Source: Pseudomonadota bacterium
Lineage (GTDB): Bacteria; Pseudomonadota; Gammaproteobacteria; Acidiferrobacterales; Acidiferrobacteraceae
DNA length: 64,000 nt
Reading direction: 5' to 3'
NCBI GenBank assembly: GCA_021819125.1
Contig: JAKARW010000001.1
Span: forward strand, 42,278-106,277
Position numbers and translations under genes: made by a program. Shown here in pieces: positions 22,569 to 55,390 of the stretch; the first letter of the stretch is position 1, and the number at the start of each line of letters is the position of its first letter. Below the pieces are notes generated by a model. It had not been told where the DNA came from. It ran no database searches and was given only the letters and a program-made list of their open reading frames with translations.

Positions 22569-22581
22569 CGGTGATCTCGTC

Positions 22582-24427: not shown

Positions 24428-24504
24428 ACGCGTGCGCATGGGTTCGGCACTGATGCTTTGGTTTTGCTATACCTTAAGAGTATTTAGCGACGATAGGGGT
24501 TGAG

Positions 24505-29827: not shown

Positions 29828-29855
29828 TTGGCACGGTCCTTGTATGGTATCTGAC

Positions 29856-37684: not shown

Positions 37685-38236
37685 TTGTCGCTTATCCGGA
37701 CCTCAAGGTTTGTTCTACGCCCCTTTGAAAAAAGAGATGCGGCGGCGTTCGCGTGCGCGGTTCGCGAGACGGCCGCCGCCGGCGATGCCTGGCTTGCCTG
37801 GGGCGGAGAAACCTACAGCGAACAGGAGGCGCGTGAGTGGTTTCGTTCGGCTGCGGTCGGCCATACCACGGGGACGAGCCTTGAGTACGGCATCTTTACG
37901 CCCGCCGATAACGCTCTTCTTGGTGGTGCCGGTCTCAATCGCATCGATCCCGACCATCGCGTGGCGAATCTCGGATACTGGGTGCGCCCGACGTGCCGCC
38001 GCCAAGGGGTGGCGCATGAAAGCGCGCGGGCGCTCGCCGAACACGCCTTCGTCGGGCTCGGCCTGCAACGGGTCGAGATCGTAGTCGCGACGGCCAATCA
38101 CGCAAGCATAGGGGTCGCGCGCAAAATGGGTGCGCGCCTCGAATGCGTGGCGCAAAACCGGCTACGCATCAACGGGCAGCCGGTCTCCGCCTATGTCTTT
38201 GCGTTGATTGCGTGTCCTCGTAAATCGCCCTCGTGA
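37685..38236 (+). CDS. GNAT N-acetyltransferase (RimJ/RimL-like)
   Basis: TTG start after a 'GGCAGGAGGG' RBS. 'FVLRPFEKRDA' and motif A 'CRRQGVAHESARAL'. Confidence 0.75.
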   Translation: MSLIRTSRFVLRPFEKRDAAAFACAVRETAAAGDAWLAWGGETYSEQEAREWFRSAAVGHTTGTSLEYGIFTPADNALLGGAGLNRIDPDHRVANLGYWVRPTCRRQGVAHESARALAEHAFVGLGLQRVEIVVATANHASIGVARKMGARLECVAQNRLRINGQPVSAYVFALIACPRKSPS

Positions 38237-38595: not shown

Positions 38596-38898
38596 ATGAA
38601 AAGATGGATCGCCTTGTCATTCTGCGTCGTAACGTCCCCCGCGCTTGCCATCATGCGATTGCCAAACTATGCGCAGGGATCGGATCTACGCGTAACGATA
38701 GAAGAGCGTGCGCACGCCATAACCGATGTCATAGCGCTCGTTGTCAGTATTCTCGCAATAATCGGTATTTTAATAGGGGCCGGATATTTCGCCGTCGGAC
38801 AGGGGGAGCGGGGGCGGAGCTATGTCGTAGGCAGCGTTCTCGGGCTCATCCTTGCGGCCAGCGCCTACGGGATCGCGGCCCTGGTGATAGGGTCATGA
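38596..38898 (+). CDS. VirB2/TrbC-like T4SS pilin
   Basis: 100 aa: signal peptide 'MKRWIALSFCVVTSPALA', then two hydrophobic helices separated by 'GQGERGRS'. RBS 'ACGGAGG'. First gene of the coupled operon. Confidence 0.6.
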   Translation: MKRWIALSFCVVTSPALAIMRLPNYAQGSDLRVTIEERAHAITDVIALVVSILAIIGILIGAGYFAVGQGERGRSYVVGSVLGLILAASAYGIAALVIGS

Positions 38899-39167
38899 TC
38901 ATGGCCCTCAATAAGCGCTTGGCCCCCGCGCGCATCCTGGGTGTTCCGCTCGCAGCGGCGGTGGCCGGGCTTATAACCGTGAGCGGCGCACTTTTTTCCG
39001 TGGTCCTGCCGGGCCCGGCCGCGGCCGTGGCCATCACGGTGGCCGTCGCGGCCTTTCCCTTAGGGGTCGGCGCCATTGTGATTGGTGACGACGTGGTGTT
39101 CGCGCACGCCTTTTGGCTTGCAAGACAAGACGCACGGATCGTCGCCCGGGAGGCCTCATGGCATTAG
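38895..39167 (+). CDS. VirB3/TrbD-like protein
   Basis: 90 aa. 'LNKRLAPARILGVPL' resembles the VirB3 'L-x-K-x-L-x-RP-x3-GVP' motif. Two TM segments. ATGA overlap upstream; overlaps the virB4-like start. Confidence 0.55.
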   Translation: MIMALNKRLAPARILGVPLAAAVAGLITVSGALFSVVLPGPAAAVAITVAVAAFPLGVGAIVIGDDVVFAHAFWLARQDARIVAREASWH

Positions 39168-41470
39168 GCGCGCGGCGCTACTGCGACGTTTATACATGGT
39201 CGCATGCCTTAACCGAAACCGTTGTGGCGCACGGGGATGGCGCCGTCTCGCTCGCAATCTTATGGGACGGGCTTGATGCCGAGTTCGAAGATAGCGGGGA
39301 GCGCGCGCGAGAGTGGGCTACGATCGAGCGGGTCTTGGAGCGCCTGCCGGAGGGGTATTGGCTGGAGTTTCACCTATGGCGTGAGCGCAATCCGGCGGCG
39401 GTGGAAGGTTATCTCAGGTATTACGAGCAGGCGCCCCGTAAGAGCAAGTTTGCGGCCACGGTGCGCGCGGCCATCGCCGATCATCTGGCGCCGTATATCC
39501 TGATGAACACCGTCGCGCTTATAGTCGGGCGACTGCCAAAGATGGAGGCGGGCCTGCGCCGGGCCCTCAATGGACAGGCGCTGCGAGCCGCCGACCTCGG
39601 GGTGCTGGGCGCGGAGCTTGCGACGCTGCTCCCAGGCGGCCGGATCGCCACGGTCCTCGAGTACGCCGGACTCATACAACGCAGTTACGACGAGCGCCCG
39701 GCGCCATCGGCGCTAGACCCGTGGCTGTCGCTTGCCGAGCAGCTGATTGCCGTGCCGCCGCGACCCGGCAAGCGGCTTTTGGATGTCGATGGCCATACCC
39801 GCCGCATCCTTTATCTTCATCTTTATCCCGACATCGAACCCGCCTGGATCCTGCCCAGCGTATCCGGCGCCATCAGCCTGCATGTCTGCCAGGTCGTCCT
39901 GCCGGCCGCCACCGAGCGGGCATTACGCGCCTCCGAACGCGCCGATCGGCTGGCGCAAGGCGCCTTGGCGCACAAAGGGCGGGAGCGGCAAATCGCCGCC
40001 CTCAAGGACATGCAAGGCTTCCGGCAGCAGGTGGCCGATCACGATTGGCGCGTGCACCGTAATGCCTATATGGTCTGCGTCGATCTCGACGACGTTCCAC
40101 CACAGGCGTTGGCGCGGCTCGTCGAGTCCCTGCAGGGTAAGGGTGGGCGGGTGCGCGACGATGACTTTATTCAGCTACCGTTTTTTCGCGTATCACAACC
40201 AGGCCAAGGATACCGCTCACCCATCTGGCGGCCGGATCATAGCGCGCTGATCGCCGCCATGAGCCCGGCGCAAGTTTTTCGCACCGGCGCCCCGCATCAC
40301 GAATCCCTGCGTCTGGGTCTTGCGTCGCAGCCGCTCGCTTTCGATTACAGTCATCAGGCCGTGGCACATGGCTTTACGGTGGCCATGACGGGCGCCGGTA
40401 AAGGCGTCGATAAGGTGGCCACCATAGTCGAAACGTATCCATTTGGTATCGACTGGTATGTGCTTGAAATCGGGTCGACCTACCGCTGGGCCATAGAAGC
40501 GCTGGGTGGGCGTTATACGAGGCTCGACCCGGGGGCGGCCGCGGTCAATCCCTTGCCGCCACGCGCGCAAGCCATTGCCGGCTTAGACCCGCTGCTTGCC
40601 TCGGGCACGCTCAATATCCTGGCCTTCATCCTGACCGATGGGCGCACGCTTCTTGATTTCCATGAGGCGGCGGCCGGGGCCGCGGCCTTGATGCGGCTCT
40701 ACAGAAACGCATCAGCCACCGATCCCGGCTTGGCGGATCTTTTGGCATCACTTGAAAACCTAGACGACGTGAGCCCAAAACAAAGGCAGGCTTCGCGCGT
40801 CATGGCCGCCAATCTCCACAGTTTCCTGGAGACACCCGAGGGCCGCATATTCGCCGGGCAAGACAACGTCCAGATTAGCCCTGGCATCAGCGGGATCGAC
40901 CTCAAGGACGTGGATCGGGCAAGCCCCAAGTTGCTTACGTTCTATTTGGTGTTTTTATGTCTGCGCTTTTTAAATCTTGCCTTCGCCGGACGCAATCAGG
41001 CGCGGGTCCTGCTGGATGAGATCCATCGATTCGTAGCCCATGCCCCCGGGGTCTTGTCACGCCTCGTCTCCGAGATCGCGCGCATGGGACGCAAGGAGGC
41101 GGCGGCGATCGATATCGTAACCCAGGGCTTGGCGGAGATCGATCTCATGGAAAAAGAGATCGTAAACTCCATGCCCCTAAGATCGCTTCTCTATCGTAAC
41201 GACGGATGGGAAGAGATCGCCGGCCGCATCGGCATGCCAGGCCGCGCCTTGGATATCTGGAAACAACTGCCATTTCCCTTGCATCTCCCCTGGCGACCGG
41301 CCATCCGCTCCGTCGGTCCCCAGTACTACGCCCTGCGATTGACATTTCCAGCGGCGGTTCTGGCCTTGGCAGACACCACCCCCGAGGGCCTGGCGCGCAA
41401 GGACCGCCTGGGAATGGAGTTATCCGACCCGCTTGCGCGGCTTGCCAGATTTCTAGAGGAAGCTTTATGA
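39158..41470 (+). CDS. VirB4/TrbE-like T4SS ATPase (atypical Walker A)
   Basis: 770 aa, the right size and position after B3. Walker A-like 'AMTGAGKGV', Walker B 'RVLLDEIH'. Start at ATG 39158. Confidence 0.75.
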   Translation: MALGARRYCDVYTWSHALTETVVAHGDGAVSLAILWDGLDAEFEDSGERAREWATIERVLERLPEGYWLEFHLWRERNPAAVEGYLRYYEQAPRKSKFAATVRAAIADHLAPYILMNTVALIVGRLPKMEAGLRRALNGQALRAADLGVLGAELATLLPGGRIATVLEYAGLIQRSYDERPAPSALDPWLSLAEQLIAVPPRPGKRLLDVDGHTRRILYLHLYPDIEPAWILPSVSGAISLHVCQVVLPAATERALRASERADRLAQGALAHKGRERQIAALKDMQGFRQQVADHDWRVHRNAYMVCVDLDDVPPQALARLVESLQGKGGRVRDDDFIQLPFFRVSQPGQGYRSPIWRPDHSALIAAMSPAQVFRTGAPHHESLRLGLASQPLAFDYSHQAVAHGFTVAMTGAGKGVDKVATIVETYPFGIDWYVLEIGSTYRWAIEALGGRYTRLDPGAAAVNPLPPRAQAIAGLDPLLASGTLNILAFILTDGRTLLDFHEAAAGAAALMRLYRNASATDPGLADLLASLENLDDVSPKQRQASRVMAANLHSFLETPEGRIFAGQDNVQISPGISGIDLKDVDRASPKLLTFYLVFLCLRFLNLAFAGRNQARVLLDEIHRFVAHAPGVLSRLVSEIARMGRKEAAAIDIVTQGLAEIDLMEKEIVNSMPLRSLLYRNDGWEEIAGRIGMPGRALDIWKQLPFPLHLPWRPAIRSVGPQYYALRLTFPAAVLALADTTPEGLARKDRLGMELSDPLARLARFLEEAL

Positions 41471-42090
41471 AAAAGACCTATGCCGCCATGGTTCTATGGG
41501 TTTTGGGCGCAGCACCCGCCAGCGCCTTTTTGGGCGTGGGCGATGTGACCTTCGATCCGCCGGTTCATGCGGAGCTCATGACTTTGTTCCATCAAACTAT
41601 TGCGATCTATCGCTCTGTCTTAAGCGAGGTCCATAGACTTCAGGCGGTCGAGTCGACCTTGCGCGCCGCGCAGCGTGACGTGAAGACCATCGCCGACGGC
41701 AATCTTGCCCGTTACGAGGAGCGCAGGCTGCCTCGCGGCTTGCCGCATGGTCTTAGGGGGCTGCTGGGCGCCACCGATGCCGCGGCCCATAAGGCGCGCG
41801 ACTATAACGCCTATCTGCACCAGCAGCTGCGCCGCTTTGGCAGGCTTACGCGGTTACGGTGGCTCGGCCGCGGGGTGGGGCAAGGCCTGAAGTTGTCGGC
41901 AACGAACTTGGGGGCCCGCACCAGCAGTGACGTGACCGCGCGATCGACGGCGGCGCTCGCAGCACTCGCCGCGAGGCAGGCGCGCACCGAAGAACGGCGG
42001 GCGATACGGCGCGCCGCGGAACAACGCAATGCGCGCCATCTGCCCACAGAGGCAGCATCCCTGTATCGCGCCTTCGGACAAACGTCATGA
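41467..42090 (+). CDS. TrbJ/VirB5-like periplasmic coiled-coil protein
   Basis: Signal peptide 'MKKTYAAMVLWVLGAAPASA', then 'GVGDVTFDPPVHAELMTLFHQTIAIY' (TrbJ-like V-x-D...N/H-x-Q start) and a long helical region. ATGA overlap. Confidence 0.5.
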   Translation: MKKTYAAMVLWVLGAAPASAFLGVGDVTFDPPVHAELMTLFHQTIAIYRSVLSEVHRLQAVESTLRAAQRDVKTIADGNLARYEERRLPRGLPHGLRGLLGATDAAAHKARDYNAYLHQQLRRFGRLTRLRWLGRGVGQGLKLSATNLGARTSSDVTARSTAALAALAARQARTEERRAIRRAAEQRNARHLPTEAASLYRAFGQTS

Positions 42091-43175
42091 GTAGTGCCTC
42101 TCTGGTCGCCGACCTGCTCGGCTATCTCGCGCCCGGGAGCGTGTACCGCGTCGCATCGCCTGTGGCGGACGCCCTCATGCGGACAGTAACGCCATCGCTT
42201 TTTTTGGTGGCGTTGTATACGCGCCTGCTCGAGGCGCAGCTCGACTCGGTCTCGGGGGCCGGACAACTCGCGCGCGTTGTGCGTGACGTCGCGGTGTGGG
42301 GCGTCATTCTGACGACCTATTTCGCGCTCGGTCATCTCGTAAACCACTATTTGAACGCGCTGTATGCGGCGATGGGTCGGATTGGGTCGCTACGGCTCGT
42401 GGCCACGCAGATGGCCACGTTACTCGACACCGCGGCCAAGGGGCCGAGCGGGGTGTGGGCCACCATAAAGGAAATCAACGCCTTGCCTTTGCGTCTTGCC
42501 ACCGTGCTTCTCTACTACGCGACCCTGGTCATGACGACTTTTCTGGAGGCGTTGCTGCGGATCGCCCAGGCCATAGGTTATGAGTTCGCGTTCCTCTATG
42601 GTCTTGTGGCCATACCGTTGGCCTTGAGCCGTACGCTGTCACTGCTGCGCGGCTTTGCCAAACTTCTCGGATTTTTCGTGCTGTGGCCGGTCGTACAGGC
42701 GCTTTTGCTGGCCGTGTTCTCGCCCATCTTCACGCACGCCGTGTCCGAGCTTCAAAGCCTTCTTGGCAAGGCCGATTACATGATCGTGTACGCGCACATG
42801 CTCTTTACCATTCTCAATCTCATCTTATGCGCCGTGCTGCTTGCCGCCCCGTATATCACCGCAAGTCTTATCGAGAATGCCGGCGCGGCCCATCCATTTT
42901 TGACCCCGTACATGGGCGCGCTCTCGCAGGCGGGGGCCACGGCGGCTGCCGCGGTAAGCGCGGGCGCCGCGAAGGCCGCGGACTACTATATCTATGGCCC
43001 CGATGAGGACATTTTGTCGCTGCCTCCGCGGCGCATACCCGAGCTCCACATTCCCGCCGACCCCGATTTCTGGCCAAGCGCGCACGATAACAACGCCGTG
43101 CGCACCAATTATCTCAAGCCGCAATACGACGGCCCTCCAAGAAGCGATAAGACCGATGATTTCTCTCGACGCTAA
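42087..43175 (+). CDS. TrbL/VirB6-like polytopic membrane protein
   Basis: 362 aa with at least 5 hydrophobic helices and a hydrophilic C-tail. Positioned after the TrbJ-like gene, as in Trb operons. Confidence 0.55.
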   Translation: MSSASLVADLLGYLAPGSVYRVASPVADALMRTVTPSLFLVALYTRLLEAQLDSVSGAGQLARVVRDVAVWGVILTTYFALGHLVNHYLNALYAAMGRIGSLRLVATQMATLLDTAAKGPSGVWATIKEINALPLRLATVLLYYATLVMTTFLEALLRIAQAIGYEFAFLYGLVAIPLALSRTLSLLRGFAKLLGFFVLWPVVQALLLAVFSPIFTHAVSELQSLLGKADYMIVYAHMLFTILNLILCAVLLAAPYITASLIENAGAAHPFLTPYMGALSQAGATAAAAVSAGAAKAADYYIYGPDEDILSLPPRRIPELHIPADPDFWPSAHDNNAVRTNYLKPQYDGPPRSDKTDDFSRR

Positions 43176-43782
43176 CGTGTGGCGCCGCCACGGCCCGCAC
43201 GGGCTTTTGATGCAGCGTCTGGCGCGCTACGCGCTGCTGGGCTGGGTGCTCTTTGGTTGCGCGGCGCTGGCGTTTGTTGTCCTGGCGGTGGTCGCCGTCT
43301 GGCGCACGCCGCCCATCATAGCGGTCGACCGGGCTGGGACTGTCCTGGGACGCATCCAGTGGCTGGGCGCAGTCCATCGATCGCGCCGCGAGATCATTAC
43401 GGCATCCATGCGGTTTTTGCAAGATTACCTCAGTGTCAACAGTGCCACCGTGGTGCCCGACTACATCCAGGCGCTCGATATGATGGCCCCACCGCTGCGC
43501 GCCACGACCGTGGCGATTTTGCGCGAAACCGCTTACCTGGCGCGTGTACGCGCCGCGCGCCTGCGCTCATGGGTGAGTTTCGCCAAGAGCCCAAACCACC
43601 CGCGCCTGGCGCGCCGGGACGGTAGACGTTTTTTGGTGCGGTTGTCAGGAGTCTTGCATGTCGTTTTGCCAAACGGCCGGCGCCATAACGAACGCTTTAC
43701 GTTGATCCTAACGGAGGTCGCGGTGGCGCGTCGCATGCACGACACCGCCGGCATCCTCATAGAGGCGATAGCCGCGCCATGA
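43156..43782 (+). CDS. VirB8-like bitopic protein
   Basis: Short cytoplasmic N-terminus, single TM 'YALLGWVLFGCAALAFVVLAVVAVW', ~150-aa periplasmic domain ('ASMRFLQDYLSVNS', NTF2-like pattern). Confidence 0.55.
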   Translation: MISLDANVWRRHGPHGLLMQRLARYALLGWVLFGCAALAFVVLAVVAVWRTPPIIAVDRAGTVLGRIQWLGAVHRSRREIITASMRFLQDYLSVNSATVVPDYIQALDMMAPPLRATTVAILRETAYLARVRAARLRSWVSFAKSPNHPRLARRDGRRFLVRLSGVLHVVLPNGRRHNERFTLILTEVAVARRMHDTAGILIEAIAAP

Positions 43783-44534
43783 TGCCCACTCTATCCGTCC
43801 CCTTAAGACCGTTCGTGCCGCATGCGCGCACCGTGATGCTGCGCCCCTACCGCGCATTGGCGGCCACCATCGTGCCTGATCTCGGCCTGCGCCTCATATT
43901 TCCGGGCGGCGCACCGCCGGCCCGTTTTGCGCTCACCAACCCGCTGTTTTCGGCGGCTCGCCTTGGGCGTCGCGCCATTCTCATAACCGTGGCACGCGGC
44001 GCCCATAAACGCTATTGCGGAAATGCCTTCATGGATTGGCGGGGCTTTTATGTGTCCCTGCTCTTGTGCACGACAACAAGCGGTCGCCACTATACGAGCG
44101 ATATCCTTTTTACGCGTCCACCCCGCCCACAGACGATGCCGCCGCGCCGGCCACGGCCCTCTCCGTGGGCGCGCGCCTGGGCTTATGCCGCCTTTGGGCC
44201 CACCCCGCAAACCGTCATTCGAAAGCGCATTTTTGCGACTCGCGGCGCGCGCACCATCGCCCTGCGCGTGCGCCGTCTGTGGCTCATGCCAGGAGAGCAG
44301 GTGCTCGGTTTTGCGCTCTTACGCGTCAAGGGTCCGCTGGGCTTGGTGCATGGCGCCCTACTCTACCGCGGGCGTCATAAGTGGCGGCGAATTCCCGCCG
44401 CCCTCACGTGTCGTTCATCAAAGACCGATCGGCGTGTCGCCTGCGCGCTCGTGCTTGCGCCCCCCGCGCGCCCTGTCAGGCGCTGGCATCTTATCGTTCT
44501 CACCGTCCTTGGACCGGTACGCTTGTCATGGTAG
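43779..44534 (+). CDS. Hypothetical protein, weakly VirB9/TrbG-like by position and strand pattern; no signal peptide
   Basis: 251 aa, very Arg-rich. 'LRLIFPGGAPPARFALTNPLFSAARLGRRAILITV' loosely resembles the VirB9 N-domain. ATGA overlap with the virB8-like gene. Confidence 0.35.
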   Translation: MMPTLSVPLRPFVPHARTVMLRPYRALAATIVPDLGLRLIFPGGAPPARFALTNPLFSAARLGRRAILITVARGAHKRYCGNAFMDWRGFYVSLLLCTTTSGRHYTSDILFTRPPRPQTMPPRRPRPSPWARAWAYAAFGPTPQTVIRKRIFATRGARTIALRVRRLWLMPGEQVLGFALLRVKGPLGLVHGALLYRGRHKWRRIPAALTCRSSKTDRRVACALVLAPPARPVRRWHLIVLTVLGPVRLSW

Positions 44535-45262
44535 CCCCATTGCCCGTCACCCCAGCGGCCATCGTGCGCCGCCTCGCGCACCAGAGACCGTCGCCGCCCT
44601 CGCTGTTTCATAGGCTGCTCGGGCTCGTAACCCCTCGCGCGCGACCGATCCGGGCTTTTGCGTCCATCCGGGTTTTGCAAGCGCCGCCGCGCCGGCCCAT
44701 GGCCTTTGCCATCGCCCATGGGCGTGCTCGGCCTGTGATCCTGGCAAGCCCAGAGCCCACGTTCGGCATTCGCCCCGGGTCGTGGATTCCGGTCATCCTG
44801 CGACACGGTGTCACCGACCAGGATCCGGCCCTCGTGGTCTTGCATGTGCCAGTGCCCGTGCGGGGTCTCCGAGGCGTCCTACCGGCCGGGACGCGTCTTC
44901 TTGGCCGCGTCGATGGCGCGCGGCTCGGGCGTGTGCAGGTCGGCGTCACTGAGGCGGTCACGCCGCGCGGGCGAATCCTGCCGTTCGCCGCCACGGCGTT
45001 TGGCGCCGACCATGATCTCGGCCTTCCCGCCTATGTGATGGGCGGGCGGCGCAAGGCCGCGCTTGCGGCCTTCGCGCAGTCGGTCGTGGAGGGTGTGGAT
45101 GCCGTCGTCGGGACCATGGAGGCCCAGTCGTCGGTCACGTCTGAGGCCTTGGGCCAGGTCGGCACCAATACCCTGAATGCCGCCGCGGATTGGCGCATCC
45201 CGCGCCGGATACTTTATGTCCCAGCGCAACAAGCCTATGTGGAAACTCAGAAGACATCATGA
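44528..45262 (+). CDS. VirB10/TrbI-like C-terminal barrel domain protein (no N-terminal TM or Pro-rich region)
   Basis: 'GSWIPVILRHGVTDQDPALVVLHV...LPAGTRLLGRVDG...RVQVGVTEAVTPRGRILPF...GADHDLGLPAYV' follows the TrbI-domain pattern. Confidence 0.5.
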   Translation: MVAPLPVTPAAIVRRLAHQRPSPPSLFHRLLGLVTPRARPIRAFASIRVLQAPPRRPMAFAIAHGRARPVILASPEPTFGIRPGSWIPVILRHGVTDQDPALVVLHVPVPVRGLRGVLPAGTRLLGRVDGARLGRVQVGVTEAVTPRGRILPFAATAFGADHDLGLPAYVMGGRRKAALAAFAQSVVEGVDAVVGTMEAQSSVTSEALGQVGTNTLNAAADWRIPRRILYVPAQQAYVETQKTS

Positions 45263-45801
45263 AACCAAAAACGTGGAAAGTCTGTTTCTTTATGGCCGGA
45301 TTGGTATTGCCGGCATCCTGTGGCGCCTGGCGGTTGGCGGTGGGTGGAGGCCTGCTCGCGGGTCTCGTCCCGGGGACGGCCTTGGGCTGGCAATTCACGG
45401 GCCAATGGACGCGTAGCACCTATGCACAGCAGAGATGGCTTGTAGACGCGAACATCAGCCAGTATGGGACGCAAGCGACCACGAGCGAGTGGCGCGAACG
45501 TGGGCGTGAAACCAGCCTGCTTGTGCTCTGGGAGCACCGGGCGCCATTCAGTTATGCGTTTCGGCCCTGGATCGGGATCGGAGGCGGAATCTCGCATTAC
45601 CGACTCGATGATCGGCAGCTTTTAAACGGTGCCGGCTACGCAATTGCCTCATATCCGGCCATCGTAAAAAACGACGGCGACTTGGCGATCGACATGACCG
45701 TACCGTTGACTTCATCGTGGTCTCTTGCCGTCACCGCCCAGACCGGATTTCCGTCACGCATTTCCACTGTCAGCATGACTATGCTCTGGAGGTTTTGGTG
45801 A
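45259..45801 (+). CDS. Small outer-membrane beta-barrel protein
   Basis: Signal peptide 'MKPKTWKVCFFMAGLVLPASCGA', alternating strands, aromatic C-terminus 'MLWRFW'. ATGA overlap upstream and GTGA overlap downstream. Confidence 0.6.
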   Translation: MKPKTWKVCFFMAGLVLPASCGAWRLAVGGGLLAGLVPGTALGWQFTGQWTRSTYAQQRWLVDANISQYGTQATTSEWRERGRETSLLVLWEHRAPFSYAFRPWIGIGGGISHYRLDDRQLLNGAGYAIASYPAIVKNDGDLAIDMTVPLTSSWSLAVTAQTGFPSRISTVSMTMLWRFW

Positions 45802-47216
45802 AAACTCGCAAACTTTACAGATGGGCATCACTTGCCGGCCTTGCGTTGAGCGGCTGTCAATTGGGAAATCCAGGACCCACGACCCCCATACCGCAAGGGT
45901 CGATCACGGGATACGTCGTCAGTGCCGGACCCGTGGCCGGCGCGTCGGTGTCCGTGCTTGGGCAAGGGGGCGTCCTTGCGGCCACGCGCACGGACGACAG
46001 CGGGCACTTCACGGTGGCGGTTCAAAGCCTCGATACGACCTTGGAGGTGGTCGCAAGCGGGGGCTCCTATGGCAACGCCGCGGGCCGCAATGTCCAATCC
46101 GGCGTCTTGCGCACGACCGTTTCCTATGCGCCGGGTAGCACCGAGGCGGTGGCCATCACCCCCATAACGAATGCCGTGGTGGCAGCCGAAGGCTATTTTC
46201 AGGGACAGGGATTGTCCGCGCCCGCGGCATTCGCGCGCGCCGATACCGTGTTTACGGATTGGCTCGGCTTCGATCCGGTGACCACGCAACCGGTGCTTGC
46301 TTCGGATGTCGGCGCCGGTACGCAGACCCTGAGCGCGGGCCTGCGCTACGGGCTTGTGCTGGCGGCTCTCACGCAATGGGCGCACGCCAACGTGAGCCAA
46401 ACGCAGACGGCGACGGAAGTTATGGCCGCGGATGTCGCCTATGACGGGCTGCTAAACGGTACCGGCGCCAGCGGCGCGCTTATGCTTGGGTCGCTTGCGC
46501 TATCGGCCGATGCCTATCGTCAGGGGCTCGCGGATGCCCTTTTGCAGGTTGCGGCATCGGCTCCGCCCGGGTCTGCGGATGCCCTTTCCGGGCCCAATTC
46601 CGCGGCGCTCCTGGCCTATGCGCAAGCGCTTGCCGAATCGACGTCGCCGCTTTTCGGCACGCTTGCACCGCCGTCTTTTGGCGGCAACACGCTCGCCTTG
46701 ACGATGGCGCCCTTGCCGGCGTGGACCCACGGAACGGTAGTGGCAAGTGGATCCGTGACCGATCCTTATGGGCTGCCGGTGACGGTCACGATCGCCATGG
46801 ATGGACAGCTTTACCAGACGGTGACCACGACATCGTCGTTTGCCTTTGCCATCAATACCAGTGCGCTCAGCAATGCCATGCATAGCGTGTCCGTCACCGC
46901 GCAGGACGCGGCCGGCGATGCGGCCTCTTATCAGGGGTCGATGGGCATCGATAACGCCCCGCCGCAGGCCTGCGTGACGGTGTTTCAGCCGATCATAGGC
47001 GGTGTCCTGGTCGCAGGTCAGTGGCAGGACATATCGGGGGTCGTGGCGGGGAGCGCCGACGGTGCCGCGCTTGCCATAACCCCAGGTATCTGGGAGGTGG
47101 AGGTGCCGACGCCCATACCCTCGCCGCTCGTGGTGGCCATGACTGACGCGGCGGGCAATGAGCAAAGTTTTTCGTGGGCCTTGAGCGGCACGTCCAATCC
47201 CGCGCCGTGCCCCTGA
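45798..47216 (+). CDS. Large lipoprotein with CarboxypepD_reg-like and bacterial Ig-like domains
   Basis: GTG start. Lipobox 'LALSGC'. 'GSITGYVVSAGPVAGASVSVL...TDDSGHFTV' is a carboxypeptidase-regulatory-like fold. 'HSVSVTAQDAAGDAAS...IDNAPP' and 'DAAGNE' are Ig-like repeats. Confidence 0.7.
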   Translation: MKTRKLYRWASLAGLALSGCQLGNPGPTTPIPQGSITGYVVSAGPVAGASVSVLGQGGVLAATRTDDSGHFTVAVQSLDTTLEVVASGGSYGNAAGRNVQSGVLRTTVSYAPGSTEAVAITPITNAVVAAEGYFQGQGLSAPAAFARADTVFTDWLGFDPVTTQPVLASDVGAGTQTLSAGLRYGLVLAALTQWAHANVSQTQTATEVMAADVAYDGLLNGTGASGALMLGSLALSADAYRQGLADALLQVAASAPPGSADALSGPNSAALLAYAQALAESTSPLFGTLAPPSFGGNTLALTMAPLPAWTHGTVVASGSVTDPYGLPVTVTIAMDGQLYQTVTTTSSFAFAINTSALSNAMHSVSVTAQDAAGDAASYQGSMGIDNAPPQACVTVFQPIIGGVLVAGQWQDISGVVAGSADGAALAITPGIWEVEVPTPIPSPLVVAMTDAAGNEQSFSWALSGTSNPAPCP

Positions 47217-47267
47217 GGGCATGCCCGCGGCTGATTGACGAACTACGATGACCGGGGTAGCGTCATG

Positions 47268-47297
47268 GCCATGCTTGGCACGGATGCCAGGCATGGC
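47268..47297 (+). other. Strong intercistronic hairpin (12-bp stem, 6-nt loop), no U-tract
   Basis: GCCATGCTTGGC-ACGGAT-GCCAGGCATGGC (one G:U pair). Ends 29 nt upstream of the ligase ATG. Confidence 0.6.
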
Positions 47298-47326
47298 TCC
47301 CACCTCAAGTCAAGGACGAACTGTGC

Positions 47327-48505
47327 ATGGAAACTCTTGCCATCCCGTTGCCCGCCAACCTTCCGCCCGATGTGTGCACGGAGATCAGCAAGCGCGCCTG
47401 CTATTGCGACACCGCGATCCTGAAATCCCGTTATCACCAGGATTCAAATTGTCTCGAGATCGATCTGCAGGGCTCGGGCGCTAGTGGCGATGTGGCGGCC
47501 AAGCTCGAAAACCTTATCGGAAAGATGCAGGTCGAGCGCCTGGCGGTCATCCCAAAAATCCTACGCGAGCGGTCCCGGGAATCGGGCCAGTTCTTTGCCG
47601 AAGCCTATAAAGAACTTGCCGAACGAGGCGATGTGTGGGCCTCTGGCCAAGGTACGGTGGGTCGGAGCGGGGCCTTCATGCGCCTCATGAATTGCCTCGA
47701 CGGCGCGCTCGAGCGTCTTGCGGCGCGCGAATTTCAAGCTATATCCCAGTCCTACAATTCGCTTGTCCCAAGCGACTGGTTGCGGCGCTCCGGATACTTC
47801 GGGTCGTTTCCTCATTCGGTGACCTTCGCCGTGCATTTGAAGGAAGACTTTGATGCAATCGAGCGATTCGGCCAGCGCCATCGTCACGGAGAAAATCCGG
47901 TGTTTGAGGGGGTAAACGAGATCGCATCCCCTGAATACTGTCTATCCCCGGCCGTGTGCTATCACACCTATGGCGCGCTCATGGGCCAAAATGTCCCAGC
48001 GGGCACAATCGCCGCCTTTACCGCCCACGGGCGGTGCTTTCGTTACGAATCAAAGAATCTCGCGGGCCTTGATCGCCTATGGGAGTTTTCCATGCGCGAG
48101 ATAGTGTGGCTGGGCGCGCGCGATGAGGTTTTGGCGGCACGGGAGAAAGCCATAAACGCCATGTGGCAACTGGTCGATCTTCTGGACCTTTCGGCCAGGA
48201 TAGAAACTGCATGCGATCCGTTTTTCGCAAGCGACTTTCCATCTTTGCGCTTCTTTCAGCTGGCCAATGACTTGAAGTATGAGTTAAAGGTGGATACGGC
48301 CCCGGACCAATCTGTTGCGTGCGCCTCGTTTAATTATCACGAGCGGTTTTTCGGGACGCGCTTTGAGATCGGTGCCGGCGATGGACAGCCGGCCCACACG
48401 GGGTGCGCGGCGTTTGGCCTCGAGCGGCTTTTGTACGCGTGCATTTGTCAGCACGGGTTTAAGCACGCGATGGAACTTATGGAGAACGCCGCCGGCCGTA
48501 TGTAG
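47327..48505 (+). CDS. Class II aaRS-like protein (SerRS-like amino acid:[carrier-protein] ligase family)
   Basis: Motif 2 'GRCFRYES', motif 3 'GCAAFGLERLLYA', 'LRRSGYFGSFPH', 'CLSPAVCYHTY', 'LWEFSMREIV'. No tRNA-binding coiled-coil arm. Confidence 0.75.
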   Translation: METLAIPLPANLPPDVCTEISKRACYCDTAILKSRYHQDSNCLEIDLQGSGASGDVAAKLENLIGKMQVERLAVIPKILRERSRESGQFFAEAYKELAERGDVWASGQGTVGRSGAFMRLMNCLDGALERLAAREFQAISQSYNSLVPSDWLRRSGYFGSFPHSVTFAVHLKEDFDAIERFGQRHRHGENPVFEGVNEIASPEYCLSPAVCYHTYGALMGQNVPAGTIAAFTAHGRCFRYESKNLAGLDRLWEFSMREIVWLGARDEVLAAREKAINAMWQLVDLLDLSARIETACDPFFASDFPSLRFFQLANDLKYELKVDTAPDQSVACASFNYHERFFGTRFEIGAGDGQPAHTGCAAFGLERLLYACICQHGFKHAMELMENAAGRM

Positions 48506-48551
48506 GCGCGGGTTTTGTGGCCGGCGGTTATGCAGGCACAAGGAGAGCGTG

Positions 48552-49583
48552 GTGCAAGAAAGTCGGATGGCGGCAGGCGGTATGGACGCAAAGTCTGCGG
48601 AGTTTTTTGAAGAGGTTGTGAATCCGGATTTCGATGAGGCAAGCGCGCTCATGCGTGCCAACTGGACGCCGCCTTGCTGGGTGTACGAACGCGATCTTTT
48701 GGCAATGCACATCCTAAGGCCGACCGCCGATCCGTCGATGGCAATCGGCCTGCGCGCGAAAAACGGCGATCTCGCCTCGTATCTCGCCTTCGTGCCCCTC
48801 ACCCTGCGTGTCCATGGGCACCTCTATCGCGGCGTGTTCGCCAGCTTTTTTACGGTGTCGGGACGCTACCGGCGCCATGGCCTGAGTGATCGCCATCAGG
48901 GGCTCATGCTGGATCGTGCGCGCGACCGGGGCTACGAACTGTATGTGGCGGTGACCGTGGCTGGCACACCGGCCAACCAGACCGTGGCGCGGGCGTTTGC
49001 GGCGCGCGGCCTTGGCGTGCGCAATGTGTGCAATTTTCGCTACCTGGCCGGAATCCCGGCTATCGTCGGCGCGCGGCTCGGTCCCGGCGACGCCCAGCGG
49101 GTGCGGGGTTATGAATCGGCCGATGCGGCCGCGGCGTTTGCGCTTTTGGCGGAGAGTGCCGCAAAGATGCCCTTGGCCAAGGTGGTGGAGCATGAGGATG
49201 TCGACTTCATGCTGCGCCTGCGGCCGCGCGTGAGAACCTACGTCTACGAGGCCGATGGCAAGCCGCAGGGCCTTATCAGTCTCGCGTTTTTGCCAGTCTT
49301 GTCGGAGAGTATCGGTATGAACGCCTATGTGGAGGCGCTCGCGCTCGCGCGCCTGGAGCCTGCCGCGCGCGCCGCTTTTGTGGATACGGTGTTACGCGAA
49401 GCGCTCGTGCAGGGCGCCCATGCGATCATGGTGCCGGATACCGGTTGCGCGGACCTCGCGGTCTTGCGTCGTCTTGGGTTTCGCGCTGCGCCACGCAAAC
49501 TGCGGCTCTTGCTCGGCGCTTTGCGCCCTGATATCACAGAGCTGCCGGAGGCCGTGGACGGTTTCTGTCTCGACGTATTCTAA
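48552..49583 (+). CDS. Tandem GNAT-fold acyl/aminoacyl-transferase-like protein (start uncertain)
   Basis: 'AAGGAG' RBS at 48540, then GTG 48549/48552 or ATG 48567. GNAT motif-A-like 'GRYRRHGLSDRHQGLMLDRARDRGY'. The second half ends in the GNAT-like 'LRRLGFRA'. Confidence 0.6.
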   Translation: MQESRMAAGGMDAKSAEFFEEVVNPDFDEASALMRANWTPPCWVYERDLLAMHILRPTADPSMAIGLRAKNGDLASYLAFVPLTLRVHGHLYRGVFASFFTVSGRYRRHGLSDRHQGLMLDRARDRGYELYVAVTVAGTPANQTVARAFAARGLGVRNVCNFRYLAGIPAIVGARLGPGDAQRVRGYESADAAAAFALLAESAAKMPLAKVVEHEDVDFMLRLRPRVRTYVYEADGKPQGLISLAFLPVLSESIGMNAYVEALALARLEPAARAAFVDTVLREALVQGAHAIMVPDTGCADLAVLRRLGFRAAPRKLRLLLGALRPDITELPEAVDGFCLDVF

Positions 49584-49586
49584 GTC

Positions 49587-50171
49587 ATGGGTGGCGGTTT
49601 GAAGGGGGTGTTCCGGACTTTGCTGGCCGGTGCCGGGATCCTGATCGCGTTTCCCGCGCTTGTGCTGGCGGCCTGCGACCGGTGTAGCGGCGGGCGTGAT
49701 GACGGATTTGTGTTCGGCGGTCAGGCGCTCGCCCTGGTTCCAGGGGTGATCGGCGACGCCGCGCGCGCGGCCTACTACTCGCGCACGCTTGCGCTCTTTG
49801 AGGCCGGTGCGGCGGTCCATTTCGGGAGTTATTTCTCAAAGCGCGGCGCGCGCGTGCATGCCGGGGCGGGGGTTGGCGCCTACTGCATCATGGGACTGGT
49901 CGATCTCGGTCCTGGGGTGCGGATCGCAAGCCGCGTCTCGATCACATCCGGACTCCACTATCACGGGAGCGCCGCCGGCGGCATCCGTGACGAGATTATC
50001 GTCACCTGTGTCGCCGTAGGCGCCCACACCTGGATAGGCGAGGGCGCCGTGATCGGCGCCGATGTCGGCGCCGATTGCATCGTGGGTATGGGATCGGTGG
50101 TCATCCAGGCGGTGCCCGACCACTCCATCGTCATAGGCAATCCGGCGCGGCGCGTCCCCTCGGTGGGCTGA
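49587..50171 (+). CDS. Hexapeptide-repeat (LbH) acyltransferase with N-terminal hydrophobic segment
   Basis: 'VHAGAGVGAYCIMG...GVRIASRVSI...VGAHTWIGEGAVIGADVGADCIVGMGSVV...IGNPARRV'. Starts 3 nt after the preceding stop. Confidence 0.8.
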   Translation: MGGGLKGVFRTLLAGAGILIAFPALVLAACDRCSGGRDDGFVFGGQALALVPGVIGDAARAAYYSRTLALFEAGAAVHFGSYFSKRGARVHAGAGVGAYCIMGLVDLGPGVRIASRVSITSGLHYHGSAAGGIRDEIIVTCVAVGAHTWIGEGAVIGADVGADCIVGMGSVVIQAVPDHSIVIGNPARRVPSVG

Positions 50172-50188: not shown

Positions 50189-51058
50189 TTAAGCCGGCTC
50201 CGGCGAGAGCAGAACGCCCTTCATGGTGTCGAGGGCCTTCTTCTCGATCTGGCGGATGCGCTCGGCGGACACGCCGTATTCCTCCGCCAGTTCGTGCAGG
50301 GTCGGTTTATCGGCTGCAAGCCAGCGTCTGCGGATGATGTCCTGGCTGCGTCCATCCAGGGACACCAGGGCATTTTGCAGCCGGTCTTGCTGCGAACTCT
50401 CGGTATCGGCGTGGGTCAGCAGGCGCTCAGGGTTGTAGCGCATGTCCTGCAGGAAACCCGCTGGCGATGACCGGAATTCCTCGTCGTCGCTGTCGTCCTG
50501 GGCGTCGAATGGCACATCCGGGCTTGCCATCCGCGACTCCATCTCCTTGACGGTGGCGGTCGGCACGTCGAGGTCCGCGGCCAGGCTCGAGATCTCGCTC
50601 TCATTCATCCAGCCGATGCGGGCGCGGGATTGGCGGAGGTTGAAGAACAGTTTGCGCTGGGCCTTGGTCGTGGCGATCTTGACGATCCGCCAGTTGCGCA
50701 GGATGTAGTCGTAGATCTCGGCACGGATCCAGTGCACCGCAAACGATACCAGGCGCACGCCGTGTGCCGGATCAAAGTGTTTCACGGCTTTCATGAGGCC
50801 AATGTTGCCTTCCTGAATGAGATCGGCTTGCGGCAGGCCATAGCCTGCGAAGGCCCGTGCCACGCGGACGACATAACGAAGCTGGGAGAGCACAAGCTCG
50901 CGAGCGGCCTCGAGGTTGTTGTGTTCACGGTACTCGATGGCAAGCTTTCGTTCCTGTTCCGCGTCCAATACCGGCGCCGCGTTCGCAAGCCGCATGTAGT
51001 GCGAGAGTCCGCCCTCGGCGCTGACGCTGACGGCGACTGGCAAGGTATGCATGGTCAT
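50189..51058 (-). CDS. rpoH: RNA polymerase sigma-32
   Basis: RpoH box 'QRKLFFNLR'; regions 2 and 4 ('DLIQEGNIGLMKAVKHFDP', 'TLHELAEEYGVSAERIRQIE'). Confidence 0.95.
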   Translation of the reverse strand: MTMHTLPVAVSVSAEGGLSHYMRLANAAPVLDAEQERKLAIEYREHNNLEAARELVLSQLRYVVRVARAFAGYGLPQADLIQEGNIGLMKAVKHFDPAHGVRLVSFAVHWIRAEIYDYILRNWRIVKIATTKAQRKLFFNLRQSRARIGWMNESEISSLAADLDVPTATVKEMESRMASPDVPFDAQDDSDDEEFRSSPAGFLQDMRYNPERLLTHADTESSQQDRLQNALVSLDGRSQDIIRRRWLAADKPTLHELAEEYGVSAERIRQIEKKALDTMKGVLLSPEPA

Positions 51059-53089: not shown

Positions 53090-54050
53090 CGACGAGCTCG
53101 GCTGGTAATACCGCATCCACAAAGGACTGGGCGTCGAACGGGCGCAGATCATCCGCCGATTCGCCGACACCCACGAAATAGATCGGCAACGCGAACCGCT
53201 TCGCAAGCGCAAACACGACACCTCCCTTGGCGGTGCCGTCGAGCTTGGTGATGCATAGGCCGGTCACGCCCACGGTCTTGTGAAACTGCTCGACCTGGAC
53301 CAGCGCGTTCTGACCGATGCCGCCATCCAATATCAGGATGATCTGGTGCGGGGCGTGCGCGTCGAGGCGCGTGAGCGTGCGCTTGATCTTGGCCAGTTCG
53401 TCCATGAGCCCCCCCTGGGTATGCAGGCGGCCGGCGGTGTCGATCAAAAGGACGTCGACGGCGCGTGAGCGCGCCGCCTGTAAGGCATCGTGGGCGACGG
53501 CGGCGGCATCGGCCCCCCGCGGCTGACTGATCATGGCCACCTCGGCGCGCCGCGCCCATTCGCCGAGCTGTTCGATGGCCGCGGCCCGAAACGTGTCACC
53601 GGCGGCGAGCAGCACCGAGCGGCCTTCGGCGCGTAGCCGCACGGCGAGTTTTCCGATGGTCGTGGTCTTGCCGGCGCCATTTACGCCGATCATGAGTACA
53701 ATCTCGGGCCGGTGCGTGATTGGCCAAGGCTGTTCGCAGGGTTTGACAATCTCGTAGAGAATGGCGCGCAAGGCCGCATAAACGGCTTCGGTATCGCCCA
53801 GTTCCTTGCGTGACACGCGCCTTGTGATCTCCGCCATCACGGTACTGGTGGTGTCTGCGCCGAGGTCGGCGGTGATAAGGGCGGTTTCAAGGTCTTCGAG
53901 CAGTGCCGCATCGAGGATGCGCTTGCGCCTAAGGAGGCCGCCCACGTTCGCGCCCAAGGCCCGCCGGGTGGCCGCGAGGCGTTCACCCAGGCGGGTGAAT
54001 ACGCCCGGTTTCCCGCTCCTATCGTCCGCCGCCTTACGAAAGAGCGCCAT
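53076..54050 (-). CDS. ftsY: Signal-recognition-particle receptor FtsY (short A-domain)
   Basis: NG domain: 'GVNGAGKTTTIGKLA', 'DTAGRLH', 'TKLDGTAKGG'. Confidence 0.93.
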   Translation of the reverse strand: MALFRKAADDRSGKPGVFTRLGERLAATRRALGANVGGLLRRKRILDAALLEDLETALITADLGADTTSTVMAEITRRVSRKELGDTEAVYAALRAILYEIVKPCEQPWPITHRPEIVLMIGVNGAGKTTTIGKLAVRLRAEGRSVLLAAGDTFRAAAIEQLGEWARRAEVAMISQPRGADAAAVAHDALQAARSRAVDVLLIDTAGRLHTQGGLMDELAKIKRTLTRLDAHAPHQIILILDGGIGQNALVQVEQFHKTVGVTGLCITKLDGTAKGGVVFALAKRFALPIYFVGVGESADDLRPFDAQSFVDAVLPAELVDDRT

Positions 54051-54056
54051 AAGGGC

Positions 54057-54323
<267 letters not shown>

Positions 54324-54340
54324 CTATAGAGGCGCCAAGT

Positions 54341-54817
54341 CTACCGCAACGCCGTCGTCAATGCAGCCTTCACGGCCGGGTGGACGAAGGGGCTTACGTC
54401 CCCCCCTAAGGCCGCGATTTCCTTGACGAACGACGACGACAGCGCGCCGTCGCGCTCGGATGCCGGCAGGAACAAGGTCTCGACTGTGGCGTCAAGCCGG
54501 TGGTTCATGCCGGCCATCTGGAACTCGTATTCGAAATCCGAAAGCGCCCGCAGGCCGCGCACGATGACCCGTGCCCCGTGACGATGAATAAAGTCCATGA
54601 GCAGGGTGTCAAAGCCGATGACCGTCACCCCTGGGATTTCGGCCAGGGCCTGCTCGGCGAGCGCCACGCGCTGCCCCAAAGTAAAGAGCGGGGCCTTGCG
54701 CACGTTGGCGGCGACCCCGACGATGACCCGCGGAAAAAGCGCCGCCGCGCGTTGCACGATATCGGTATGGCCGTTGGTGAAGGGGTCGAATGTCCCCGGG
54801 TAGACGACAATGGTCAC
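54341..54817 (-). CDS. coaD: Phosphopantetheine adenylyltransferase
   Basis: '[17 protein letters not shown]', '[13 protein letters not shown]', 'SSSFVKEI'. Confidence 0.93.
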
Positions 54818-54826
54818 GCGTGATCC

Positions 54827-55390
54827 TCAAGACGCGAGCGCGGCCAAACCGTAGGCGACACCACCTGCCTGGCCGCGTCTGTGCCAGCGCAGTCCCGCCG
54901 GCAACTCAAAACCATAGGCGACCGCGCTTTCGATATAGATAAGCCCCGCTGGCGCCAGAATGCGCCGCGCCAGGATTGTGGTCAAGGCGTCAGGGAGGAG
55001 CCGGCTTGCATAGGGTGGGTCAAGGAAAATGATATCAAAGGCCGCGGGTCCCTGACCGGCCAGATAGTCGAGGGCTTCGCCCACCATTATGGCCGCCTCG
55101 GCGCCGAGCCGTGCGCCGTTTTCGCGCAACGCCGCGACCACCGCGGCGTTGCAATCCACCAAAGTCGCGGCCGCCGCGCCGCGCGACAGCGCCTCGAAGC
55201 CGAGGGCCCCGGAGCCTGCGAAGAGGTCGAGGCACCGCGCCCCGGCAAGCCATGGGTTCAGCCAGTTAAAGAGTGTCTCGCGCACGCGGTCGGGCGTGGG
55301 CCTAAGACCCGGTTCCGCGGGAAAGGCGAGCCTGCGCCCGCGCCAGTGTCCGGCGATGAGGCGTATGCGCGAGCCTTTAGGCTCACCCAT
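54827..55390 (-). CDS. rsmD: 16S rRNA (guanine966-N2)-methyltransferase
   Basis: 'RIIAG..RGRRL..P...LRPT.DRVRETLFNWL', 'DLFAGSGALGFEALSRGA', 'DPPY'. Start at 'MGEPKGSRIRL'. Confidence 0.88.
   Translation of the reverse strand: MGEPKGSRIRLIAGHWRGRRLAFPAEPGLRPTPDRVRETLFNWLNPWLAGARCLDLFAGSGALGFEALSRGAAAATLVDCNAAVVAALRENGARLGAEAAIMVGEALDYLAGQGPAAFDIIFLDPPYASRLLPDALTTILARRILAPAGLIYIESAVAYGFELPAGLRWHRRGQAGGVAYGLAALAS

Follow-up and report, generated by a model that had tools for sequence, protein, structure and literature searches.

Ten overlapping genes (g1 to g10) in a 64-kb stretch of an Acidiferrobacter sp. chromosome (64,000 nucleotides of contig JAKARW010000001.1, hereafter the window) probably encode an exapted, MOBless type IV secretion system (T4SS) without a coupling protein, which is derived from a rare conjugation family and is neither a live conjugation system nor a decaying remnant of one. 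Two things are new here: a T4SS family that is divergent and lacks annotation, and a domesticated module derived from it. The VirB4-type ATPase of the window (g3) is identical to WP_297364925.1, and the rpoH gene of the window clusters with those of A. thiooxydans and strain SPIII_3.

A preliminary description of this DNA had listed thirteen co-directional genes, the first ten of them chained by overlaps, and its coordinates and junctions proved to be exact. The open reading frames (ORFs) g1 to g13 lie on the forward (+) strand between positions 38596 and 50171, and g1 to g10 overlap by 4-20 nt. ATGA overlaps connect g1/g2 (38895), g3/g4 (41467), g4/g5 (42087), g6/g7 (43779) and g8/g9 (45259), a GTGA overlap connects g9/g10 (45798), and the overlaps are longer at g2/g3 (10 nt), g5/g6 (20 nt) and g7/g8 (7 nt). 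The following genes are separated by gaps of 110 nt (g10/g11), 61 nt (g11/g12) and 3 nt (g12/g13). The start codons are consistent with the protein lengths called independently in relatives (770, 207, 362, 208, 252, 244, 179-180 and 472 amino acids (aa)). A scan of the locus for promoters and terminators was no better than with shuffled sequence and is silent on the operon boundaries.

The protein g3 (770 aa, 39158..41470, +) carries the Walker A sequence TGAGKGV and the Walker B sequence LLDE and, as judged by its predicted fold, is a true VirB4. The AlphaFold2 model (predicted local distance difference test score, pLDDT, 82) had as its best Foldseek match the VirB4 protein TrwK of R388, aligned over the full length (E 6e-26, template modeling (TM) score 0.55). 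The VirB4 of Thermoanaerobacter came next, and HerA and FtsK ranked below. No Pfam family matched g3. In NCBIfam, the TraC-F-type model gave E 9e-14 with 50 bits against a cutoff of 567, and the matches to the other curated VirB4 models (VirB4_CagE, TrbE, PFL_4706, Bacteroidetes TraG and CD1110) were non-significant (E 0.16, 0.24). The outgroup proteins nearest to the g3-type VirB4 clade are likewise under all subfamily cutoffs, and comparison of the VirB4 family profile with the PDB returned nothing useful.

The Walker A region of g3 (residues 409-417, AMTGAGKGV) fails the canonical pattern [AG]xxxxGK[ST], and the Walker B sequence LLDE is conserved. Gly416 was invariant in 19 sequences, and GKG or GKD was found in >95% of the ~90 full-length members of the VirB4 clade, the outgroup having GKS. 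The coupling proteins of the mobile relatives, described below, have kept the canonical GKT. Judging from these sequences, GKG in the Walker A goes back to the ancestor of the family and is not a local defect.

Two further components were assigned by a family match and by fold, respectively. The protein g8 (244 aa, 44528..45262, +), which has neither an N-terminal anchor nor a signal, is by its domain content TrbI/VirB10: it matched Pfam TrbI above the cutoff of 35 (E 2.9e-9, 37.5 bits), and its family profile matched the C-terminal domain of CagY (VirB10) with E 4e-4. The protein g7 (251 aa, 43779..44534, +), without a signal peptide, is VirB9-like according to its modeled fold. Its AlphaFold2 model, built from an alignment of 16 database sequences, has a pLDDT of 75 and shows two beta-sandwich domains. 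The top four Foldseek matches were X. citri VirB9 (6gyb_B, 4.6e-8), R388 TrwF/VirB9 (8rt6_B) and two chains from the Dot/Icm complex of Legionella (7muc), and the N-terminal domain aligned with that of TrwF with TM 0.71-0.74; generic immunoglobulin (Ig) folds score only little under these VirB9 matches. To account for the missing signal peptide of g7, a frameshift fusion of g6 and g7 was considered and ruled out, as CCATGATG offers no slippery site and the in-frame stretch upstream lacks hydrophobicity.

The first gene, g1 (100 aa, 38596..38898, +), weakly resembles a VirB2/TrbC pilin: the Pfam TrbC match (E 5.6e-5, 23.7 bits) is under the cutoff of 27.9, and the protein has a signal peptide and two hydrophobic helices. 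It opens the block in most loci that reach that far upstream and was undetected in loci L035, L036, L038 and L041.

Four proteins received their putative names, VirB3, VirB5, VirB6 and VirB8, from size, topology and gene order. The VirB3-like g2 (90 aa, 38895..39167, +) is a small membrane protein, hydrophobic across residues 9-76, whose gene immediately precedes that of VirB4 in related loci; neither Pfam nor NCBIfam gave a match. At the VirB5/TrbJ position stands g4 (207 aa, 41467..42090, +), a secreted helical protein with the signal peptide MKKTYAAMVLWVLGAAPASA, which also had zero Pfam and NCBIfam matches; its family profile matched PDB chains confined to helical bundles and coiled coils. 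The polytopic membrane protein g5 (362 aa, 42087..43175, +) occupies the VirB6/TrbL position, has several hydrophobic segments within residues 139-264, is present in every locus extending far enough, and had zero matches in Pfam, NCBIfam or the PDB. At the VirB8 position, g6 (208 aa, 43156..43782, +) is bitopic, with a single transmembrane segment (residues 22-58) followed by ~150 residues, and a profile of 22 homologues found nothing in the PDB at E<=10. The resulting gene order is B2-B3-B4-B5-B6-B8-B9-B10. Thus, of the VirB/Trb-type module proposed earlier, VirB4 and the VirB9-like protein stand by fold and VirB10 by the Pfam TrbI match, VirB2 is weak, and VirB3, VirB5, VirB6 and VirB8 go no further than topology and position.

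The last two genes of the chain had been proposed to be part of the module, and they are indeed conserved even in its plasmid-borne version. The product of g9 (180 aa, 45259..45801, +) is a small exported protein with an N-terminal signal and an aromatic C-terminus (...WRFW), a putative outer-membrane beta-barrel, which is conserved after VirB10 in most loci and had zero Pfam, NCBIfam or PDB matches. The Ig-domain lipoprotein g10 (472 aa, 45798..47216, +) has a canonical lipobox (LALSGC) and matches to Pfam Big_6 and Big_13 under the cutoff (E 5e-5 to 8e-5). Its homologue in one relative matched CarboxypepD_reg/Big_13 weakly, and in several relatives of the plasmid or integrative conjugative element (ICE) type the homologues are ~960-1007 aa long. 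It closes the conserved block, also on the plasmid of Candidatus Tenderia electrophaga.

The family to which g3 belongs is rare. Database searches gave 65 proteins matching g3, all of them unnamed or 'hypothetical' save one UniRef label starting 'TraG P-loop'. A profile search of 1.84 billion representatives yielded ~96 clusters at E<=1e-30, below which the scores drop to generic unclassified TraC/VirB4-like proteins, and only one of 72,556 PLSDB plasmids carries the VirB4 family. Since every homologue is annotated as 'hypothetical', we conclude that this rare, uncharacterised family is not a described system; the preliminary description had likewise not recognised the gene combination as a described one. 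In the 41 genome loci recovered, the g1-g10 block is collinear. Their hosts are Acidiferrobacter and metagenome-assembled genomes (MAGs) labelled Gallionellaceae, Nitrosomonadales, Burkholderiales, Nitrospirota, Chromatiaceae, Desulfobacteraceae and Chitinophagaceae. In a Nitrospirota MAG (L025:5270-8968), the genes for the small outer-membrane protein and the Ig protein precede the pilin gene and do not follow it, with a gene for an RCC1-repeat/Big_2 protein (514 aa) between them.

Twelve loci outside Acidiferrobacter have a conserved gene set upstream of the block, in most of them directly before it. This set consists of ParB, a winged-helix protein and a P-loop protein of ~520-600 aa, with ParA in most loci; a small protein with a weak match to Replic_Relax also belongs to it, and a TopoIII-like gene lies upstream in one locus. 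The profile of the P-loop protein matched the Legionella coupling protein DotL/IcmO (6e-9), and one of these proteins passed the Pfam models TrwB_AAD_bind and TraG-D_C. One of the twelve loci with a coupling protein is situated on the 107 kb plasmid of Ca. Tenderia electrophaga (CP013100), where ten genes (Tel_17035-Tel_17080) are homologous to and collinear with g1-g10 and the VirB4 proteins are 46% identical. PLSDB types this plasmid as MOBP and 'mobilizable'. That PLSDB/MOB-suite calls it merely 'mobilizable' means that its transfer machinery goes unrecognised. The MOBP assignment comes from PLSDB typing, and no relaxase was located among ten large ORFs of the plasmid, which yielded helicases, a methylase and a protease. 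The plasmid (L049/L045) also carries UvrD-like and SNF2 helicases, a DNA methylase with DUF1156, a DUF499 protein, a HipA toxin and several transposases.

In none of the twelve coupling-protein loci was a VirB11-like P-loop ORF found within 10 kb. As VirB11 is absent from relatives that do have a coupling protein, its absence in the window is inherited and is no pointer to ComB, contrary to the likeness to this DNA-uptake system that had been drawn from the missing VirB11. We conclude that the family is a conjugation-type T4SS that never used VirB11, and that its ancestral state, as reconstructed from these loci, is a plasmid or integrative element with the module beside ParA/ParB and the coupling protein.

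The situation in Acidiferrobacter is different. In a simple neighbor-joining tree of VirB4, calculated without support values, the Acidiferrobacter loci formed one clade nested among coupling-protein-linked loci, which fits a single loss of the coupling/partition block. No coupling protein was present within 10 kb in any of the ~20 loci of this clade. Among the ORFs scanned in the window (outside the module, the Pfam scan comprised the 20 larger of ~50 ORFs and the smaller ones only partly), neither a coupling protein nor VirB11, a relaxase or an integrase turned up, in line with what had been noted before, and tblastn of the window with four coupling proteins of the g3-type VirB4 family gave zero matches. 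Replication functions were also not seen among the scanned ORFs, and a tRNA or flanking direct repeats that could mark integration scars were looked for and none was found.

The module occupies the same place across the genus. With a single exception, every locus with readable flanks, those of both cultured strains examined among them, has it between bioFHC and rpoH. This holds for MAGs whose VirB4 identity is as low as 61%, although L012 has a different upstream side. The module adjoins rpoH, with all ten genes intact, in Acidiferrobacter sp. SPIII_3 (complete chromosome CP027663.1) and in A. thiooxydans. The earlier suggestion that the module is chromosomally fixed is supported. Compared with six lineages, the ratio of nonsynonymous to synonymous substitution rates (dN/dS) was 0.04-0.30 for every gene, with dS ranging from 0.7 to >2 or saturation. 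The most constrained genes are that of the pilin g1 (dN/dS 0.04-0.07, the lowest in the module), VirB4 and the B6-like gene. Across lineages with saturated dS, the ten ORFs have remained intact and have kept their lengths and their start/stop overlaps. These dN/dS values indicate a domesticated module and not a decaying one. In one Acidiferrobacteraceae MAG (L015:10218-11330), the B6-like gene contains an in-frame stop, which is either a pseudogene or an assembly error. It had been reasoned that, if relatives carried VirD4 next door, the locus would be a decayed ICE remnant: only distant relatives carry it and the locus does derive from a conjugative element, but purifying selection and intact genes across the genus speak against decay.

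The proteins of the Acidiferrobacter clade have also been remodelled. The B6, B9, B10 and Ig proteins have 362, 251, 244 and 472 aa, compared with 447, 303, 323 and 960 aa on the Tenderia plasmid, and the secreted or periplasmic components have isoelectric points of 11.3-12.0 in the window versus 4.7-5.1 on that plasmid. The N-terminal hydrophobic signal of the B9- and B10-like proteins was lost throughout the Acidiferrobacter clade and kept in every other family member; before the conserved domain of B9, the maximal hydropathy over 11 residues is 0.75-2.13 in the clade versus 2.48-2.97 in the others. A longer N-terminus is ruled out by in-frame stops. The isoelectric points of the B9- and B10-like proteins are ~12 in all Acidiferrobacter lineages, compared with ~5 in the Tenderia homologues.

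We propose that g1-g10 would represent the mating-pair-formation (MPF) module, that is, channel and pilus, of this rare and uncharacterised T4SS family. In an Acidiferrobacter ancestor, the module would have become fixed in the chromosome between bioFHC and rpoH; the coupling protein and the partition block would have been lost and the module retained under purifying selection. The VirB4-like ATPase, on an inner-membrane platform of the B3-, B6- and B8-like proteins, may extract and polymerise the VirB2-like pilin, and the B9- and B10-like proteins, the small outer-membrane protein and the Ig lipoprotein may form or decorate an envelope-spanning part. MOBless T4SSs are common and exaptation has occurred repeatedly (PMC3548315).

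Without a coupling protein, the machine cannot recruit relaxase-bound DNA or cytoplasmic effectors, so its output should be coupling-protein-independent. We infer that the most likely output is a pilus or an adhesin at the cell surface that serves contact or attachment, which we put forward only tentatively; the strongly constrained pilin and VirB4 favor it. DNA uptake is less likely, and periplasm-to-surface export is a further alternative.

Several points weigh against this interpretation. The VirB3, VirB5, VirB6 and VirB8 assignments have neither sequence nor fold support, and the VirB4 tree on which the placement of the loss depends is the simple one described above. The locus is left without a canonical P-loop ATPase: its sole NTPase has a GKG Walker A lacking the Ser/Thr. 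As the B9- and B10-like proteins have no signal or anchor, the envelope-spanning core may not assemble as assumed, and it is above all this loss of signal peptides that casts doubt on a textbook envelope-spanning complex. Furthermore, the search for a coupling protein and a relaxase covered 64 kb of ~3.3 Mb, and such genes may lie elsewhere in the genome.

Some of these same features would fit a bolder idea, namely that the module is a new envelope machine, with a constrained pilin, a VirB4 without the Mg-binding Ser/Thr, no other ATPase in the locus, and signal-less VirB9/VirB10-like proteins. We regard this as doubtful. If true, the machine would differ mechanistically from all studied T4SSs; it could be, for example, an inner-membrane-centred system for pilus or filament assembly, or an organelle for contact with, or attachment to, mineral surfaces in this acidophilic iron/sulfur oxidiser.

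Among the characterized T4SSs closest to the module are those of the MPF-T type. R388 Trw, A. tumefaciens VirB and RP4 Trb have the order of pilin, B3, B4, B5, B6, B8, B9 and B10 that the module shows under its partly putative assignments, and the likeness extends to the fold of g3 (R388 TrwK), the fold of g7 (TrwF/X. citri VirB9) and the TrbI/VirB10 domain in g8. Unlike MPF-T systems, the module has no VirB11, VirB1 or recognisable VirB7; g3 fails all curated VirB4/TrbE/TraC models and has GKG/GKD in place of GKS/T; the B10-like protein of the mobile members has a cleavable-type signal instead of an inner-membrane anchor; and two extra conserved genes encode the small outer-membrane protein and the large Ig lipoprotein. 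The mobile members of the family, represented by the Tenderia type, differ from the Acidiferrobacter module in having ParB, the winged-helix protein and the coupling protein directly upstream, mostly ParA too, and B9- and B10-like proteins with signal peptides.

Other bacteria, too, have chromosomally encoded T4SSs that function in the absence of a VirD4-type coupling protein. Bartonella Trw, which is an adhesion-pilus system, resembles the Acidiferrobacter module in this respect, as do Bordetella Ptl and Brucella VirB. All three, however, are MPF-T systems of host-associated bacteria and have retained VirB11, whereas the host of the Acidiferrobacter module is an acidophilic, free-living chemolithotroph and the VirB4 of the module falls into another clade. 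Ptl and Brucella VirB are T4SSs without a coupling protein (PMC3548315).

Among the alternatives, the one that fares best, though it is unlikely, is a ComB-like machine for natural transformation, taking up DNA from the environment through the outer membrane. The partly putative component list (B2-B4 and B6-B10, with neither B11 nor D4) matches that of Helicobacter pylori ComB, which is likewise MOBless and is the known precedent for exaptation of a T4SS, here turned importer (PMC3548315). However, the module has no sequence relation to ComB beyond that of T4SSs in general. The absence of VirB11 is family-wide, including the mobile forms with a coupling protein; it predates the loss of the latter in Acidiferrobacter and does not discriminate. 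Furthermore, g3 falls short of VirB4_CagE, the model that includes ComB4, export signals are missing from the B9- and B10-like proteins, neither comEC nor dprA was noted among the window ORFs scanned, and an MSHA-type pilus system is encoded nearby.

It is also rather improbable that the module serves as a conjugative or helper channel in trans, whose docking partners, a coupling protein and a relaxase, would come from another place in the genome or from mobilisable elements. Mobile members of the family do use a coupling protein, and the inspected DNA is a small part of the genome, as said above; however, the coupling protein is missing within 10 kb in all those ~20 clade loci as well as in the window, and the long vertical retention at one site together with the remodelled, shortened B6, B9, B10 and Ig proteins suggests a changed function.

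The preliminary description had considered all thirteen genes as one system, in which a T4SS derivative is combined with a dedicated aminoacyl-ligase/GNAT/LbH chemistry, which could, for example, modify the pilin, an adhesin or the envelope. This now appears very unlikely. The first gene of the downstream trio, g11 (392 aa, 47327..48505, +), encodes a class II aminoacyl-tRNA synthetase homologue which, as indicated by NCBIfam and PDB matches, is homologous to the amino acid:[carrier protein] ligase of Bradyrhizobium, with a seryl-tRNA synthetase (SerRS)-like class II core. It matched NF005479 with E 1.4e-44 and 152 bits, under the equivalog cutoff of 357, and the Bll0957 ligase structures 3mey/4h2w with E 4e-31 over residues 114-378. 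The Bll0957 family reportedly comprises the amino acid:[carrier protein] ligases described by Mocibob et al. in 2010. The g11 protein is like these ligases in its truncated SerRS-like class II catalytic core and differs from them in an extra Cys-rich N-terminal extension, in having no adjacent carrier-protein gene, and in its partners, an N-myristoyltransferase-like GNAT and an LbH protein. The conserved extension of ~90 aa (residues 1-91; 47327-47600), in which Cys17, Cys25, Cys27 and Cys42 are invariant, is unmatched in the crystallised Bll0957, the alignment beginning at g11 residue 114, and as a domain it may serve metal binding or acceptor recognition. A search near the trio for ORFs with a phosphopantetheine-site motif found none, and a motif scan of the window for a carrier protein was negative. 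Overlapping small ORFs at 47235-47484 were considered as carrier protein and rejected, as they are not carrier-like.

The second gene, g12 (48567..49583, +; start between 48549 and 48567), encodes a putative tandem-GNAT acyltransferase of ~338 aa. It matched Pfam Acetyltransf_1 with E 5e-4, and its family profile matched N-myristoyltransferases across both GNAT halves (residues 35-251, E ~1e-4). The third, g13 (194 aa, 49587..50171, +), is a predicted membrane-anchored hexapeptide-repeat (LbH) acetyltransferase with an N-terminal hydrophobic segment (residues 7-31) and with matches to NCBIfam NeuD/PglB/VioB (2.8e-10) and WbbJ (7.9e-10), all under cutoff, and to Hexapep (E 1e-3).

In favor of one thirteen-gene system, the genes are co-directional with only 110 nt between g10 and g11, the trio is under purifying selection, and it adjoins the module in the window, in loci L001, L003-6, L008, L010, L015, L046 and L047, and in both cultured strains examined. 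Against it, relatives with an 85%-identical VirB4 (L002, L009, L042 and L043) lack the trio at this junction, as do L011-13, L017 and every non-Acidiferrobacter locus, and the comparison with L002 showed that the constraint on the T4SS genes is equal with or without the trio. In the 85%-identical relatives, its place is taken by small ORFs including a BrnA antitoxin (L043:18285-18473; L042/L043 18005-18980), and the junction of module and rpoH behaves as a variable insertion spot. In addition, a metagenome locus (L048) encodes a 50%-identical ligase and a 47%-identical LbH protein beside Wza, Wzz/GNVR, Bac_transf and WecG genes, and neither a GNAT nor a T4SS gene was detected in this 10 kb contig. 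The metagenome scan for g11, which used patterns specific for the N-terminus, reached only three close relatives. The lack of the trio in close relatives and the occurrence of ligase and LbH genes in a polysaccharide-export cluster point to an independent accessory cassette, so that a dedicated (amino)acylation chemistry of the T4SS finds no support; the preliminary description had itself named such unlinking in other genomes as a refutation. We conclude that the trio is a separate, patchily distributed cassette, and we infer that it probably (amino)acylates or acetylates a surface polysaccharide.

Finally, a non-functional, slowly decaying remnant of an integrated conjugative element is most improbable: the coupling, partition and DNA-processing genes and the signal peptides of the B9- and B10-like proteins have been lost, the Walker A is non-canonical, L015 has the in-frame stop mentioned above and the third-codon-position GC content (GC3) of the module is slightly below that of the flanks, but the ten ORFs are intact in saturated-dS lineages including both cultured strains, every gene is under the constraint reported above, and the GKG Walker A was inherited from the ancestor of the family.

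The core genes that flank the module are as given in the preliminary description. The bioF/bioH/bioC region (~34.6-37.3 kb), named from clusters of homologues in common with an 85%-identical relative that was annotated with Pfam, is followed by a GNAT gene (37685-38236) that stands between it and g1. On the other side, rpoH (50189-51058, -) is followed by ftsX, ftsE and ftsY, named in the same way. The 20 Pfam-scanned flanking ORFs are housekeeping genes and include those for a histidine kinase, a sigma-54 regulator, Mla, FAD monooxygenases, PepP, IlvA, a GGDEF-EAL protein, RpiA, MshE/MshG, a dynamin-like protein, Fpg and an ABC-2 transporter. Just upstream of bioFHC lies a complete-looking operon for an MSHA-type type IV pilus (22030-33825). 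Its MshE (24505-26229), with T2SSE and MshEN domains, is the sole T2SSE-type ATPase found in the window; MshEN is a c-di-GMP-binding domain. The operon further contains MshG (26226-27464), a secretin (29867-31909), and mshI/J/K-like, MshM-like AAA and MshN-like TPR genes, the secretin, AAA and TPR genes being recognized by homology to a Pfam-annotated relative. The cell thus has a second, conventional pilus system next to the module. The sole Rfam match in the window is 6S/SsrS RNA (10879-11060, +; RF00013, 80.8 bits). In cultured Acidiferrobacter (L050/L054 4349-5694), a CLC-type chloride channel gene lies between the dynamin-like and methyltransferase/coaD genes; at the matching place in the window (54050-55770), there is no ORF of this size.

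The T4SS family described here is missed by current annotation: its VirB4 has no Pfam match and stays under the NCBIfam cutoffs, and MOB-suite reports 'mobilizable' only. Plasmids and ICEs of iron-/sulfur-cycling and electroactive bacteria that use this family would be mis-scored as non-conjugative. The ligase/GNAT/LbH trio calls for caution, since adjacency does not make it part of the system. The GKG/GKD Walker A and the signal-less VirB9/VirB10 proteins raise the questions of how this VirB4 is energised and how the core is assembled. The Acidiferrobacter copy offers a clean natural case of exaptation, in which the tree allows the coupling-protein loss to be located, an event followed by purifying selection at one locus across the genus. 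As two cultured strains carry the module, the function of a coupling-protein-less T4SS is directly testable in a free-living bacterium.

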